From the IMG/VR virus record IMGVR_UViG_3300025466_000015: a DNA stretch of 64,000 bases; one strand, 5' to 3'. How positions within the stretch are numbered: position 1 is the first letter of the stretch; each line of letters opens with the position of its first letter. The stretch comes from a virus. Both the position numbers and the translations under genes were made by a program. Below the pieces are notes generated by a model, which did no database searches, was not told where the DNA came from, and saw only the letters and a list, made by a program, of their open reading frames with translations. Shown one piece after another: positions 32,159 to 56,786 of the stretch.

Positions 32159-32254
32159 AATATGTTTCCTTTTGTTTGTTTGTATGGGTTAATTATACTG
32201 GATCCAGAGGATTTGGCAAGCATCCGTGGAATACTTGACCAAATCACTGGGTTA

Positions 32255-32455
32255 TTATCTTTTCCTATTTGGATTCCAGATGGAATCAGCAGGAAGCAAG
32301 GATAGAATTCTATCGGTGATAGCGTCACAACCAGCCATGTCGGCTTCTTCTAGCTCGCTAATGGCTTCTAAGCCTTCAGCAAGGAATTCTAATTCGGAAG
32401 CTGTCAGGGTGAGGGTCACGGTTTCGGTGGACTTGGTTCTATATGATGCTGGCAT
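32255..32455 (-). CDS. Hypothetical protein
   Basis: Cassette promoter and RBS. Confidence 0.6.
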   Translation of the reverse strand: MPASYRTKSTETVTLTLTASELEFLAEGLEAISELEEADMAGCDAITDRILSLLPADSIWNPNRKR

Positions 32456-32548
32456 TTTATTTCCTTTTTTGATTTACTATGGAATGGATTATACCGATTC
32501 TGGATGGAATGGCAACTATTGGTGGTAATAGTCTACCAAAGCTATGGG

Positions 32549-32689
32549 TTATTCCTCGGTTACCTCAATATAACGAGCAACCGTCAAAGCTTCGCCTTCC
32601 TCCAGCTGTTCAACTATGCTATTGAAAATAAAATCGGGATTGGAACCTTCAACCAATACTACCTCAATTTCCACTTTGAATTTTACCAT
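32549..32689 (-). CDS. Hypothetical protein (46 aa)
   Basis: ATG follows the cassette RBS; the track's longer start runs through the promoter. Confidence 0.55.
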   Translation of the reverse strand: MVKFKVEIEVVLVEGSNPDFIFNSIVEQLEEGEALTVARYIEVTEE

Positions 32690-32748
32690 TTGATTTCCTT
32701 TTTGATTTGATGGATCAATTATACTAAAATTGGAGGATTTGGCAACCA

Positions 32749-33501
32749 TTAGGCTGCTAACTTGACCAAAATGGTCGGGTATTTCACAAAGCCGGTAGTG
32801 TCTTTTTTGGCCTTGCCTTTAGCGTACAAACCAACAACCACACCTTTGGGGTCTAGGAAGCGGAGGTCGCTTTCATCACCATTAAACACTGGCAAACCCA
32901 TATAAGTGGATGGCATTGGTTCGGTTTTCTTAATACCGAACACCGTAGCAATATTATAACCAGAAGCGATGGCCTTGGCCACGTCCGCCTCATTACCATC
33001 AGCATTGCTAAAGGTCAATTGGTAATTGGTGATACCAGCAACCTTACGGCCAAGCACCTTGGTGTAATCATAGAATTGGACATTGGGGAAGCGAGCGAAA
33101 ATGTTTTGGTAGAATACGCCGTTATCGGTAAAACCATACTTTTCCCATGATAGGTCGCTAGTACCATTCAAGCGGATGGCGGGAATGAGACCAGCTTTAG
33201 CGGATTGCTTGATGGCCAAATTAATATCAGCAACCAACCACTCCATAAAACCATCTCGCTCTTCAAAAAAGAAGCTTGTTTTACGGATTCTAGCTTGTTG
33301 GATGACATTGGTGGTCTCGCCTTTTTTAAACATACCACCACGTCCAGCTAAATTCAAGCAAGCAACCGTGCAACCAGCAGTCCGCTTAGGACAAACCTCA
33401 TGGCCTGAAAGGTCAGCTGGTGCCAAATGTAAAATATATGTCATATAGCCTTGAGCCATACCTTTGAGGGTCTTTGGATTGCCTGTGGATAGTAATTTCA
33501 T
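32749..33501 (-). CDS. GP88-family protein
   Basis: LHLAPA, CPKRTAGCTVACL, RLNGTSDLSWE, QFYDYTK, GDESDLRFLD, GLYAKG. Confidence 0.75.
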   Translation of the reverse strand: MKLLSTGNPKTLKGMAQGYMTYILHLAPADLSGHEVCPKRTAGCTVACLNLAGRGGMFKKGETTNVIQQARIRKTSFFFEERDGFMEWLVADINLAIKQSAKAGLIPAIRLNGTSDLSWEKYGFTDNGVFYQNIFARFPNVQFYDYTKVLGRKVAGITNYQLTFSNADGNEADVAKAIASGYNIATVFGIKKTEPMPSTYMGLPVFNGDESDLRFLDPKGVVVGLYAKGKAKKDTTGFVKYPTILVKLAA

Positions 33502-33551
33502 TTTATGTCCTTTTCTTGATTTGATGGATGGATTATACCAGAATCCTAGGA

Positions 33552-33794
33552 TTAGGCAAGCGTTTTTTGGTCTTGCATTTCACAAAGTATAAATTTAGCG
33601 ACATTCAGCTTTTGACGGGTGTATTCCACAGCACGGGGACCAGCACCCATGGACAGCATTTCCTGGCAATCGGACAGGATACCCATAACCACCATTTCCA
33701 ATCCAGAGTGCTTGGCGGTCAAGCTCTCCATATACTGGCTACGGATTTCCGCTTCGGTTATACCGTACATTTTGGTTTCCATATATTGTGACAT
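33552..33794 (-). CDS. Hypothetical protein
   Basis: Cassette promoter and RBS; ILSDCQEML. Confidence 0.6.
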   Translation of the reverse strand: MSQYMETKMYGITEAEIRSQYMESLTAKHSGLEMVVMGILSDCQEMLSMGAGPRAVEYTRQKLNVAKFILCEMQDQKTLA

Positions 33795-33884
33795 TTTATT
33801 TCCTTTTTGATTTGATGGATGGATTATACCGGATTCCAGGGGATTGGTCAAGCACTTTTGGAATACTTGACCAATCCGGTGGGT

Positions 33885-34073
33885 TTAATCCAGATTTGCT
33901 TCGTGGATTTTACGGAGCACGGAATCAATGATAGAATCGGTGGTTCCGTCCGCTAGGTTGTTGTCCATGTCGGCAAGGTCAGCATTGACCGAGTATGCGT
34001 TTAAAGCATCATACAACACGTCCATTTCCGCATCGGTGAATCCAATGGTTGTCACAGCGTCTTTTAATAACAT
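33885..34073 (-). CDS. Hypothetical acidic protein
   Basis: Cassette promoter and AAGGAG RBS. Confidence 0.6.
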   Translation of the reverse strand: MLLKDAVTTIGFTDAEMDVLYDALNAYSVNADLADMDNNLADGTTDSIIDSVLRKIHEANLD

Positions 34074-34550
34074 AATATCTCCTTTTTGATTTGATGGATG
34101 GATTATACCGGATTGGTAGGAATTGTCAACCATCCAATAATACTTGACCGGAATATACTGTTGTTTTTTGGCACTTGCCTTTGGGGCTGGTTTCGGTATA
34201 ATGGACCCTATTCGAAAGCAGGACTGGGGTGGACGTGGAGGCTGGGCATCATAATAATAACCCACTCCCCCGCTGTAATACTTTTCTCTTATATTGCCAA
34301 AACCATGGATTTTAGTATAATGCCCCTATGAAAACAAAAAAAGCAATTCAAAATTTTATAATGTATACTTTTGTATTAATAGTACTTTTGTATTCATTTG
34401 ACCAAGATACTAACATTAAAGTAATCAGCGGCTCAATTGATATGGAAGTAATACTTTAATACTCCAGTAAAAATTGTGAGTACTTTTGACTACGCTTGAC
34501 AATCCTCTGGATTATGATACAATGGAATCTTAAATTGAAAAGGACACACT

Positions 34551-34721
34551 ATGACGGACAATGATTTTATAGAATTTATTAATGAGACCAATCCAGAGGT
34601 TACCATTTGCGGCTTGACCTTTTCACCTGGCGATATCTTGAAGGAAATGGATCCCGTTGCTTTCCGTTGTTTCAAGAGCAATTTTGAGGCATCCATGGAA
34701 GAAGACGAAGCCACGGTGTAA
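34551..34721 (+). CDS. Small hypothetical protein (56 aa)
   Basis: TTGACA/TACAAT promoter at 34496-34523; AAGGA RBS; VTICGLTFSPGDILKEMDPVAF. Confidence 0.55.
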   Translation: MTDNDFIEFINETNPEVTICGLTFSPGDILKEMDPVAFRCFKSNFEASMEEDEATV

Positions 34722-34912
34722 TACTTTTTTACTACTGTACCAAATCACAGTTAAAACTTTTTCATTACAAAGGACACAAAAATGAGTACTTTAGATTCAA
34801 TGGAGTATTTTGATTACTTAAGCATTAAAGAAGCCGCAGAGGACTTGGAAGAGCTTGAAGCTCTGGCTCAAGAGTGGGAACTGTACAATAACCAAGAAAG
34901 CGAGTGGGACCT

Positions 34913-35137
34913 ATGAGCCATATGAAGGACATAGCCTTTAGACTGGAAGAGCTTGAGAATGGAATTGCTGACAATAGCTGGTCGGTAGATATGGTAGTTG
35001 CTGAGATAAACTGCTTGATGGACCTTGGGCTTCACTCTGAGATGGAAAGAGCATTCAACCGTGGTATCACCCGCTGGTATAGTGCAGGTATGCCTAAAGG
35101 TACCGCTGAGGTAGCCTCTGAGATGGCTCTGAGGTAA
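34913..35137 (+). CDS. Hypothetical protein
   Basis: ORF whose 3' end runs into the GAGGT array. Confidence 0.4.
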   Translation: MSHMKDIAFRLEELENGIADNSWSVDMVVAEINCLMDLGLHSEMERAFNRGITRWYSAGMPKGTAEVASEMALR

Positions 35138-35418
35138 CGCTGAGGTAAAAAACTTGAGGTAGCTCTGAGGTGCATTGAGGTGCAACATTGAGGTAAAAAC
35201 CGTGGGGATTCTGAGGTAAAAACATTCGGAAATGCTCAGGTAAAATCTCGGCCACAGTCTAAGTGAGAATGATTATCATTTACTTTGGTATATCAGCGAG
35301 GTATCCAACGATATTTCCTGCTGATTTTCTGAGGTTCCTTGATATTTCCTGCTGAGGTATCGTATTTTGGCACAATGAGGTAAAACTGAGAGGTAAACTC
35401 TGAGGTAGCGTAGAGGTA
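35106..35418 (+). repeat. Array of (C/T)TGAGGT(A) direct repeats
   Basis: 15 exact GAGGT copies from 35108 to 35413, all on one strand; GATATTTCCTGCTGA duplicated at 35310 and 35341. Confidence 0.85.
35264..35278. promoter_or_regulatory. Fur-box-like site
   Basis: TGAGAAT-G-ATTATCA, one mismatch to the 7-1-7 consensus TGATAAT-N-ATTATCA. Confidence 0.55.
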
Positions 35419-35508
35419 AACCCAATAAAATATTGGCTTTTCCTGTATAGTACCGACTAACGTAGGTATCATTCTATTCTTAATATAAGATGCAAGAGGT
35501 AACATAAA

Positions 35509-35703
35509 ATGGCAATATTCAAGGTAAGCAAGGTTCGTATTTCTAATTATGAGCCTGAGGTATCAATTATTCTAGACTATGACGAACTGGAGCGGATATT
35601 CATAGCATTAGATGAGCAGGTAGCGATTGATGCTGAGGGTAACATGGTTTCCGTTGATAATATGTCCCTGATGGCCAAGTTGTCTCTTTTGGACAACGAA
35701 TAG
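35509..35703 (+). CDS. Hypothetical protein
   Basis: GAGG RBS. Confidence 0.5.
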   Translation: MAIFKVSKVRISNYEPEVSIILDYDELERIFIALDEQVAIDAEGNMVSVDNMSLMAKLSLLDNE

Positions 35704-35782
35704 TCTACCGGTTTGGTCGGGTATTACTTGACAAACCGAGGTAAGCCTGTATAATTGTATTTTTAGTTGATAAGGAAAGAAA

Positions 35783-35998
35783 ATGAAGTTACCCTTTAAG
35801 TGTATGGTTTTGGATAAAGAGCCTGTTCTGGTCTCTAATCCTTTTTCTGGTGAATCTTGTCTATTGACACCTGAGGCAGTTGCGGTGTATGATATGATTA
35901 AAGGTTCTGAGATGTTTGGCGACTATAAGACTGTTCGTAAAGGACTGGACTGGTTTGCTGAGAATTTTCCCTCTGAGTATATGACTTTATTGGATTGA
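35783..35998 (+). CDS. Conserved phage hypothetical protein
   Basis: NPFSGESCLLTPEAVAVYD...YMTLLD; promoter at 35728-35755. Confidence 0.6.
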   Translation: MKLPFKCMVLDKEPVLVSNPFSGESCLLTPEAVAVYDMIKGSEMFGDYKTVRKGLDWFAENFPSEYMTLLD

Positions 35999-36210
35999 TG
36001 ATGAATAAAAATGTAGCAAAATTGTTTGTCAAGGCTGGTGGTTCTATTGAGGCCATGGAGAGTGGTGATAGTTACCTGACCTATTGTGATGATGGTTTTG
36101 ATCCTGAGTTGTTTGCTGAGTTGATTATTCGTAATTGTGCTCATGTATGTTTGGAAGCAAATGATTATGAGCGTATTTTGAATCTTTTTGAAATTGGAGT
36201 GAAAGTATGA
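35995..36210 (+). CDS. Divergent member of the FAELIxREC small-protein family
   Basis: ELFAELIIRNCAHVC...ILNLFEI. Confidence 0.55.
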   Translation: MMMNKNVAKLFVKAGGSIEAMESGDSYLTYCDDGFDPELFAELIIRNCAHVCLEANDYERILNLFEIGVKV

Positions 36211-55408: not shown

Positions 55409-55540
55409 GAAGATTAAGAAACTAATAATGAAATTAAATCGTGCTGAGTTTGAACATAAACTCGACAAGGTGAAAAAGTTATGGTTTAAAATTCTAAAGA
55501 AATCTATGAAGCATAAGCACACAGAGGCCGTTAGATGATT

Positions 55541-55864
55541 ATGGTTGTATGAAGTAAATCAAAAAGTATTCTGGACGGGGGTGCGAATCCCCCCACCTCC
55601 ACCAAAGATATATTGCACCAATAACGCCACGGGGTTATCTAAGGACTGCAGCCTGAAAAGTACATAGTGAGAAGTACAGATAACAGCAATGTATCTTTGA
55701 TGGGGGTGCATAGTTTCGACAGGGTAACAAGTAGAGGCATGGACAACTCATCACAGAGAGATGTAAAAAGTAAATCAAAGTAACCGCAAACGACTCACGT
55801 TTCGCATTGGCTGCCTAAACGCAGACTAGGGTTCGGTGGATTCCTCGTAACAGAATATCCACCA
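55541..55864 (+). ncRNA. ssrA: Circularly permuted (two-piece) tmRNA; outer boundaries approximate
   Basis: T arm and CACCTCC-ACCA (ends 55604) precede the GGGGGTG strand (55702), giving a G3:U70 pair; tag ANDSRFALAA* at 55786-55818; intervening segment closed by a stem. Confidence 0.88.
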
Positions 55865-55889
55865 TTAATTTTAATAACAAGGAGTTTGA

Positions 55890-56786
55890 ATGGGAACGAT
55901 AGTAACAATTGGCCAAACGCCAATTAATGCAACATACACAGCAGTAACTGGTACAACTGGTGGTGCTGGTACAGGTGCTAAATTTGATGTAACAAAAACT
56001 AATGGTGTTTATACAACAGTAATCCAAGCCGCAAATCTTGGTGCTGGTTATGCCGTTGGAGATACAGTTATTATTGCTGGCACATCATTGGGTGGAACAG
56101 TTGCTAATCCTGATGTGATTGTAGTAACATCAATTGCAACTGGTGGTAAAATCTCCACATTTAGTGCAGCTGGTACAGGTCAGATTGGTAATGGTTTGAA
56201 TTACACCATCATTGACGTAACTGGTGTAACATCATACAACCTAGGCGACAAGAGTTCCAATTTCACCGTTGTTAATGATACGACAAACAAAAACATTCTA
56301 GTGACATCAGCATTGATGACTGCTGTTTCTTATAAACTAGAAGGTGTTAATCGTATTGCATTTACTGATAAATCAACTGCATTTGACATTACTGGTACTG
56401 CTGGTGATGTATATGCTTTGTTGAAAGCTGGATTTGGTACAGTAAGTACAACATATGAAGGCATTGGTATCAAATTGGAAGATGCAGGTACAACAAGTGC
56501 TCAGATTTCACAAGCAATCGTGACATCTGCACCGTTCATTCTTGCTAATCCAGACATTGCTACATTTGTTAACAATGTATATACTAATGTGATGGGTGTT
56601 GCACCAACACCAACACAAGCATCACCATATATTAGTGCTTTGGCAACAGGTTCTACAACTCAGGCAGCTCTATTGAATGCAGCTGCTCATCTCACTACTT
56701 TCCAACAAACTATTGGGTTAGTTGGAGTAGCGCCAGCAACAACTGGTGTTCTAGCGGCTTCAGGTATTGATTTCATACCAGCCTAA
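55890..56786 (+). CDS. Thr/Gly/Ala-rich protein with DUF4214/S-layer-like C-terminus
   Basis: VNRIAFTDKSTAFDITGTAGDVYALLKAGFG...FVNNVYTNVMGVAP. Confidence 0.55.
   Translation: MGTIVTIGQTPINATYTAVTGTTGGAGTGAKFDVTKTNGVYTTVIQAANLGAGYAVGDTVIIAGTSLGGTVANPDVIVVTSIATGGKISTFSAAGTGQIGNGLNYTIIDVTGVTSYNLGDKSSNFTVVNDTTNKNILVTSALMTAVSYKLEGVNRIAFTDKSTAFDITGTAGDVYALLKAGFGTVSTTYEGIGIKLEDAGTTSAQISQAIVTSAPFILANPDIATFVNNVYTNVMGVAPTPTQASPYISALATGSTTQAALLNAAAHLTTFQQTIGLVGVAPATTGVLAASGIDFIPA

Follow-up and report, generated by a model that had tools for sequence, protein, structure and literature searches.

What use might a virus make of a short sequence repeated many times, always in the same direction, in a stretch of its genome that carries no genes? 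The question is raised by a locus within a 64,000-nucleotide stretch of viral DNA (the window, by which we mean the whole of this stretch), where same-direction copies of the short motif CTGAGGTA lie in a gene-free region around a predicted Fur box. Annotation identifies the window as part of the genome of a large freshwater phage of the T4 type that is uncultured, as is its host: its genes include those for a ribonucleotide reductase, a CobS-type ATPase and a peptidase that are shared with T4-like cyanophages at 35-37% identity, it contains many strong sigma-70-type early promoters together with small early genes, and the sequencing runs that contain the phage are all freshwater or aquatic metagenomes. 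DNA searches of a cultured-phage collection with positions 34500-36000, in near and distant modes, gave zero matches. Judged from its sequence, the array would most likely be a platform on which a DNA-binding protein docks, and it is a candidate replication or control site.

The array, its motif and its setting

The array was first noticed in a preliminary description of the sequence, which listed 15 exact copies of GAGGT that all point one way. Every one of these copies is present at its listed position on the + strand (35108-35417), and there are zero copies on the - strand from 35000 to 35800. When the strand-specific density of the motif is surveyed across the rest of the window, the pentamer occurs 34 times on the + strand and 40 times on the - strand, which sets the expectation at 0.18 copies per 313 nt per strand; outside the array it is neither enriched nor strand-biased. 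In 100 first-order Markov simulations of the window the maximum count in any 313-nt span was 2-4, compared with the 15 observed. The copies form two clusters. The left cluster (35097-35241, + strand) holds eight exact copies, at 35108, 35131, 35142, 35156, 35167, 35177, 35190 and 35213, as well as four degenerate units (AAGGT at 35097, GAGAT at 35120, GGGGA at 35203 and CAGGT at 35237), giving a mean period of about 11.7 nt. The right cluster (35298-35417, + strand) holds seven exact copies, at 35298, 35331, 35354, 35377, 35390, 35402 and 35413. Although both clusters are present as first described, expansion of the second is confined to this phage and its nearest variant, the corresponding position in other relatives having 2-4 boxes. 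The right cluster also contains a 15-nt exact direct repeat (35310-35324 and 35341-35355) that is specific to this lineage, and in the RNA fold the copy at 35310-35324 forms a hairpin with 35289-35304.

The spacings between copies, reported at first as mostly 10-14 or 23 nt, are indeed of these lengths, with 33 nt occurring once. Across the sequences compared, 73 of 119 spacings are 10-14 nt, with a mode of 11, and a further 19 are 23-25 nt. The 23-nt gaps are mostly filled by degenerate units such as GAGAT at 35120 and GGGGA at 35203, and these sites are occupied by perfect or near-perfect boxes in relatives. Where iterons call for at least three same-direction repeats at about helical spacing, the array has 15 exact and about four degenerate units with a mode of 11 nt. 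Weaker copies of the form NAGGTA widen the field to 35085-35742, and outlying boxes are found on the + strand at 35496, in the ribosome-binding site of an open reading frame at 35509-35703, at 35557 within the same frame, and at 35738 in the spacer of an early promoter (35728-35755). This frame is swapped for other genes in several relatives and so is not part of the module considered here.

The pentamer proves to be the correct core of a wider unit. When 80 distinct units from the window and its relatives are combined in a logo, the motif reads CnCTGAGGTAa, with information at -4, -2, -1, +5 and +6 in addition to the core: T at -1 is present in 81% of units and A at +5 in 79%, the two C positions, -2 and -4, are filled in 62% and 56%, respectively, and among units with A at +5 the next position is a purine in 89%. 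The information spans about 10-12 positions (-4 to +7). In the 11 sequences examined for them, inverted copies of this box number 0.

The surroundings of the array place it, by prediction, within an early transcription unit. Consensus scans identify two strong sigma-70-type early promoters on the + strand, at 34294-34321 and 34496-34523, each with 11-12 of 12 matches, that would drive transcription rightward through the gene cassette and the array, and no terminator is predicted between them and the array. With the leftward early promoters at 34129 and 33851 (- strand), they would form a point of transcriptional divergence about 0.8 kb to the left of the array, and one relative (L331) has the identical divergent promoter layout. 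Three small acidic open reading frames lie downstream of the rightward promoters. The second to last encodes a very acidic protein of 44 amino acids (34782-34916, + strand), has no family match and is coupled through an ATGA overlap to the last; a gene of 44 or 45 codons precedes the 74-codon gene in four relatives as well (L323, L325, L332 and L333). The last, which we call ORF74 for its 74 amino acids (34913-35137, + strand), ends inside the array. The array had been described as lying in mostly non-coding DNA, which is correct: its first two boxes sit in the last codons of ORF74. An alignment of 10 homologs shows that the C-terminal (x-S-E-V)n tail of ORF74 is the translation of the first boxes and that its stop codon is the TAA of a box.

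ORF74 itself is modelled by AlphaFold2 as an acidic bundle of three helices with a disordered tail (pLDDT 83.5). The model has no fold match in the PDB and gave no atlas lead beyond chance, the sequence has no Pfam or PHROG match, a tblastn search of the cultured-phage collection found no match, and homologs number only a few among 1.8 billion representatives. ORF74 has no DNA- or RNA-binding relative. Nonetheless, the homolog of ORF74 is the only gene that is always linked to the array, and it is worth considering whether its product binds the boxes. This does not look likely: the box stays GAGGT(A) even where the ORF74 gene has diverged to 63% DNA identity, so the protein is unlikely to set box specificity. 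Because the box does not co-vary with ORF74, its reader would be something conserved, be it a factor of the host, the ribosome or a protein that the phage encodes at another locus.

A conserved module with drifting linkers

The array belongs to a module that we find in 13 metagenome contigs from relatives of the phage. These were located through two flanking small proteins in ENA, JGI and Logan assemblies and include near and more distant relatives; five JGI contigs were added by an exact scan for part of the core described below, so that in these five the core is present by construction, while the others were not selected in this way. In every contig that reaches the region the order is the same: a homolog of ORF74, 6-11 left boxes, a core containing the Fur box, about 115-137 nt of variable sequence in which 2-7 boxes lie, and an element at the right end. 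The 6-11 left boxes are found in all 13 related contigs, and the array as such, whose absence from close relatives had been named as a sign against it, is present in every relative that carries the cassette.

Within this order the boxes persist while the linkers and the copy number vary, both among relatives and within populations, in agreement with the earlier proposal that the motif itself is selected. In one alignment of the module (A2), 36 of the 45 box columns are invariant (80%), as against 122 of the 220 other columns (55%; Fisher p = 0.002). The comparison errs on the cautious side, since the highly conserved core is counted among the other columns. In contigs of four additional sequencing runs, all 22 of the 22 listed single-nucleotide differences inside the array fall outside the GAGGT cores; since the differences are clustered, they represent about a dozen independent events. 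At the joints in these contigs whole units are lost or replaced, and in a near-identical variant (L321) linkers have changed and boxes have been restored. The linkers are heterogeneous, as had been noted. Whole-unit deletions or replacements occur at 35122-35161 and 35151-35205 in contigs from other runs, and numerous metagenome contigs (L323, L324, L329, L330 and L332) end within the array; box number is thus polymorphic in natural populations, and it disrupts assemblies.

Two parts of the module, its almost invariant core and its right end, stand out by their conservation. The core (35199-35285) comprises the last three box units of the left cluster and a unique segment, and in relatives with 63-81% identity in the ORF74 gene it retains 86-91% (alignments A2 and A4). 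It contains the Fur box (35264-35278), a 15-bp inverted repeat that matches the 7-1-7 consensus at 14 of 15 positions, holds a 13-bp perfect palindrome (35268-35280) and is the sole hit with one mismatch or fewer in the 64-kb window. It is invariant in every relative that reaches the site, including those found by protein homology. Fur would be expected to bind at 35264-35278 on the strength of this match, although the site does not resemble an operator of the usual kind, in that no promoter overlaps it on either strand to be repressed. A site resembling that of IHF, in a match read by eye, overlaps the Fur box. The 100-nt windows at the array centre have a G+C content of 39-41%, compared with about 36% for the window, and a 29-nt patch around the palindrome is at 24%; the GC skew of the array does not differ from that of its flanks.

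The right-end element (35410-35461, + strand) is 52 nt long and consists of the last box and an imperfect 15-bp inverted repeat; the corresponding hairpin has a predicted energy of -16.4 kcal/mol (z -2.5), and the element is neither a standard terminator nor a promoter. In L333, the most diverged relative, this element is 100% identical and the core 86% identical, compared with 63% for the DNA of ORF74, such that the non-coding parts of the module are better conserved than the gene next to them. Immediately past the right end, four relatives (L325, L326, L328 and L331) have two perfect tandem DnaA boxes, in which TGTGGATAA occurs twice as part of a 13-nt direct repeat (at 2120-2150 in L325), and L333 has a DnaA box matching at 8 of 9 positions (985-994) between its right-hand boxes. 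In the window itself there is no DnaA box near the array.

The module is not found throughout the clade. In 80 more distant relatives from IMG/VR, identified through a GP88-like gene that is 74-82% identical, there is no GAGGT array and no DNA match to 34300-35750, and a k-mer cluster scan of the same 80 turned up coding or AT-rich clusters alone and nothing comparable built from a different motif. When IMG/VR was scanned for exact matches to the array, core and right end, there were 0 hits. A search of IMG/VR for a paired-box pattern did return sequences, and these were pentapeptide-repeat genes with a 15-nt period and other coding repeats, which are unrelated; likewise, five in-frame GAGGT(A/G) units within a gene of a prophage-like contig (L207) and 14 units in a coding repeat (L281) are not homologous to the module. 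Its absence from the 80 distant relatives indicates that the module is an accessory cassette of a hyperplastic early region rather than a clade-wide feature and, by the same token, that it cannot be an essential origin.

A probable protein-binding DNA array or a possible RNA-level element

The explanation that fits these observations best, to which we give slightly less than even confidence, is that the array is an iteron-like set of protein-binding sites on DNA that forms an origin or control complex gated by host factors through its connections to Fur and DnaA. Specifically, a sequence-specific protein encoded by the phage or its host would bind head-to-tail on the 8-10-bp boxes (CnCTGAGGTAa), which recur about every 11-12 bp, or roughly once per helical turn, and flank the conserved core with its putative host Fur site. 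In some relatives, sites for the host initiator DnaA would then lie next to this Fur-centred array. In the early region of the phage, the resulting multi-protein complex would designate a site of accessory control. Lying 0.8 kb from the divergence point, with early promoters upstream of it, this site would most likely act as an auxiliary replication origin or initiator-loading site; second in likelihood is a switch or titration site by which early development would be coupled to the iron and replication status of the host.

Several features argue for this explanation. The motif extends over about 10-12 positions, a width usual for the footprint of a protein and greater than that of the 5-nt Shine-Dalgarno core, its copies are strictly head-to-tail with a modal spacing of 11 nt, and the boxes are under selection, as seen in the excess of invariant columns (80% versus 55%). 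The module includes predicted sites at which host proteins would bind double-stranded DNA (Fur here, DnaA in relatives), the core (86%) and right end (100%) are kept where ORF74 is at 63% DNA identity, the array is close to the predicted point where early transcription diverges and has early promoters upstream of it, and there is a possible precedent in the origins of SaPI elements (PMC9371898), to which we return below. Among the options first put forward for the array, that of iterons or a loading site therefore holds up best as an iteron-like protein-binding array, with its wide motif, 11-nt mode and central Fur box, whereas its assignment to replication or packaging is conjectural; from these features we infer both that the reader of the boxes is a DNA-binding protein and that it has any role in replication.

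Other observations weigh against a DNA-level function. No initiator (Rep) gene that would recognise the repeats, or other DNA-binding gene, is linked to the array, the flanking open reading frames being small, acidic and of no assigned family. With a variation of +/-2 nt, the spacing is loose for cooperative binding to phased sites, the centre is not clearly AT-rich, and both the lack of a nearby DnaA box in the window and the lack of the module in the 80 distant relatives count on the same side. In addition, the confinement of the copies to the sense strand and the start of the array exactly at a stop codon are both predicted by a function at the level of RNA.

Such a function, which we regard as possible but rather unlikely, would make the array the 3′ untranslated part of the early ORF74 message. 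Each unit would then consist of a UGA stop, the Shine-Dalgarno core GAGGU and a UAA or UAG stop, read by 30S subunits, by ribosomes or by a sequence-specific RNA-binding protein, and at the level of the ribosome the array might be a standby or trap site, a stabiliser of the mRNA or a re-initiation relay towards the next gene. All copies lie on the sense strand of the predicted early transcription unit, with no terminator predicted ahead of them, and the array starts at the ORF74 stop codon in every relative. The sequence GAGGTAA serves as the ribosome site of the next gene (at 35496) here and in relatives, and a box with the Shine-Dalgarno core is a real ribosome site twice in the vicinity. 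The conserved flanks also acquire a meaning, in that T at -1 yields TGA (81% of units) and A at +5 with a purine at +6 yields TAA or TAG, closing two of three frames in each unit. As read from the sequence, a period of 11-14 nt leaves the end of each box 4-7 nt before the YTG of the next, a workable distance between a Shine-Dalgarno sequence and a start; furthermore, variable spacing is easier to accommodate in RNA than in phased DNA sites, and the + strand folds somewhat better than shuffled sequence (z -2.4).

The same flanks, however, are not those that a ribosome would favour. G before and G after the core would extend pairing with the 3′ end of 16S rRNA, but the conserved bases are T and A, and the C residues at -2 and -4 have no ribosomal explanation. 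The phage's own ribosome sites favour AAGGA or AGGAG, with GAGGT in 5 of 106 and GAGGTA in 2 of 106, and the possible starts among the 80 units are CTG in 46, TTG in 15 and ATG in only 3, making an array of minigenes unlikely. No Rfam family matches (two snoRNA hits with E above 3 are at chance level), RNAalifold finds no covariation that would support a conserved fold in the core, and the Fur and DnaA boxes of the module would act on double-stranded DNA. These results also weaken the earlier suggestion that the array is a Shine-Dalgarno decoy; its companion, an antisense RNA with multiple anti-Shine-Dalgarno sequences on the opposite strand, is disfavoured as well, there being no promoter for such an RNA and no antisense or late promoter nearby.

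Known elements that act through ribosome binding include STAB-SD sequences and the lambda bar minigenes, which are untranslated Shine-Dalgarno-like sequences or two-codon minigenes in the transcripts of phages or bacteria. Each of those occurs singly and either pairs well with 16S rRNA or starts with AUG, whereas here there are at least 15 units with flanks that do not pair and starts that are mostly CTG, and we know of no described precedent for an array of multiple Shine-Dalgarno sequences. A more specific version, in which 15-20 units of stop, Shine-Dalgarno core and stop capture host 30S subunits or ribosomes without productive translation, and the embedded Fur box adds an iron input at the level of DNA, seems to us improbable. 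If true, this trap or relay would serve takeover of the host or control of the flanking early genes, and an array acting as RNA on ribosomes would be a new kind of translational takeover element.

Known systems and weaker alternatives

It is informative to examine the preferred explanation, an iteron-like array read by a protein on DNA, in light of known systems. In the iteron origins of plasmids (R6K gamma, pSC101, P1 and RK2) and in the ori and crr octamers of P4, same-direction repeats bind an initiator, and DnaA boxes and an IHF site lie near. Plasmid iterons are 17-22 bp long with a spacing of about 22 bp and a linked rep gene, whereas the boxes here measure 8-10 bp with a spacing of about 11 bp, and no rep gene turned up; the R6K iteron origin is also cited in work on T4 replication origins (PMC3016281). 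The origins of SaPI elements, the staphylococcal pathogenicity islands, are similar in layout: they have 6-12 iterons of five or six nucleotides directly downstream of an open reading frame, split around a central region (PMC9371898), much as boxes with a 5-nt core start at the end of ORF74 here and flank a central core. In SaPIs, however, the upstream gene encodes a large Rep helicase with a winged-helix domain rather than an acidic helix bundle of 74 amino acids, and their iterons include copies in the opposite direction and flank an AT-rich segment, while here all copies point one way and the centre, with its Fur box, is not clearly AT-rich.

Within the T4 group, oriE has evenly spaced short direct repeats, of unproven role, in an early-promoter-dependent origin near a switch in transcription direction (PMC3016281). 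These repeats have a 24-nt period, lie in late gene 5 and encode the beta-helix repeats of gp5 (L320:5403-5570). The array here is not syntenic with gene 5, repEA or repEB; it is non-coding, has an 11-nt period and lies among small early genes beside the GP88-like gene, and the 12-nt repeat at a 24-nt period that characterises oriE was not found. The hexamer AGGTAA, common to the oriE repeats and the boxes, is probably a chance likeness, and we regard oriE as a loose analogue only. A further comparison is offered by the injection stop signal region of T5, which is non-coding and contains repeats, palindromes and 8 DnaA boxes (bioRxiv 10.1101/866236). Both are non-coding stretches of virulent phages packed with repeats, palindromes and boxes for host factors, but there is no sequence relationship between them, and the array has a single Fur box and a much denser set of non-palindromic boxes. 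The phage studied here is T4-like, with no known terminal repeats, which also sets it apart from T5.

Replication of T4-type phages is thought to start from R-loops and through recombination. To our knowledge, the so-called iterons of oriE, of doubtful meaning, are the only ones known in these phages. If the DNA-level explanation is true, the array would be the first clear candidate among T4-type phages for an origin or control site that is nucleated by a protein and gated by the status of the host.

The boxes might instead serve another polar function of DNA, either as a pac-like recognition site for packaging or as a one-way barrier or loading site for a translocase, a nuclease or a replication fork, with oriented boxes arranged around a bend site. 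The short boxes all strictly face one way and form two groups about a central palindrome or IHF-like site, a layout that recalls the pac site of P1. T4-type phages, however, package by a headful mechanism without a fixed site, the module sits with small early genes and most relatives lack it, and the motif is neither enriched nor strand-biased elsewhere in the window (34 versus 40 copies); we consider this quite improbable.

Least probable of all, and largely refuted, is that the array has no function, being either the decayed remains of a coding repeat that persists in the tail of ORF74 or a selfish minisatellite growing by slippage. The tail does translate two or three boxes as x-S-E-V repeats, the copy number is variable among strains and assemblies break within the array, and 42 nt of the left cluster resemble, at 71%, a segment of the right cluster. 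A degenerate coding repeat, also considered from the start, is contradicted by the modal period of 11 nt, which is not a multiple of three, by the stops in two frames of every unit, by the lack of a conserved open frame on either strand and by indels among relatives that are not multiples of three. Heterogeneous linkers between kept boxes are the opposite of what slippage copies would leave, which argues against a minisatellite, and the module is better conserved than the gene beside it.

A number of other candidates were compared with the array and rejected: a CsrA/Rsm sponge (the boxes have no GGA motif), PhoB, CpxR and other OmpR-family boxes (the 7+4 layout is similar and the recognition bases differ), Arg(AGG) minigenes like those of lambda bar (the start position is mostly CTG), a Rho loading site or R-loop-promoting G-cluster (the GC skew is that of the flanks), the elemental pause consensus (a position that requires a pyrimidine has a purine), promoters of the MotA or late type (none matched), a decoy for BREX or Type III restriction (the motif is only partly similar and the clustering would be left unexplained), and a CRISPR-like or anti-CRISPR repeat (the units are too short).

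The region to the left of the divergence point has features of its own. A block of leftward early genes with their own promoters, including the GP88-like gene, occupies 32219-34265. In the 80 IMG/VR relatives the GP88-like gene is co-oriented with the small genes, which suggests that a local inversion or insertion in this lineage created the divergence point beside the array. Five of the early promoters, at 34496 and 40098 on the + strand and at 32219, 32745 and 33851 on the - strand, have in common a palindromic element of approximately ATCC-TCT-GGAT in the spacer between -35 and -10, as well as a conserved block about 20 nt upstream of -35; the spacer element may be the operator of a shut-off factor or a piece of a mobile promoter cassette. 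Elsewhere in the window, ARAGORN identifies a permuted, two-piece tmRNA at 55512-55909, with the tag ANDSRFALAA.
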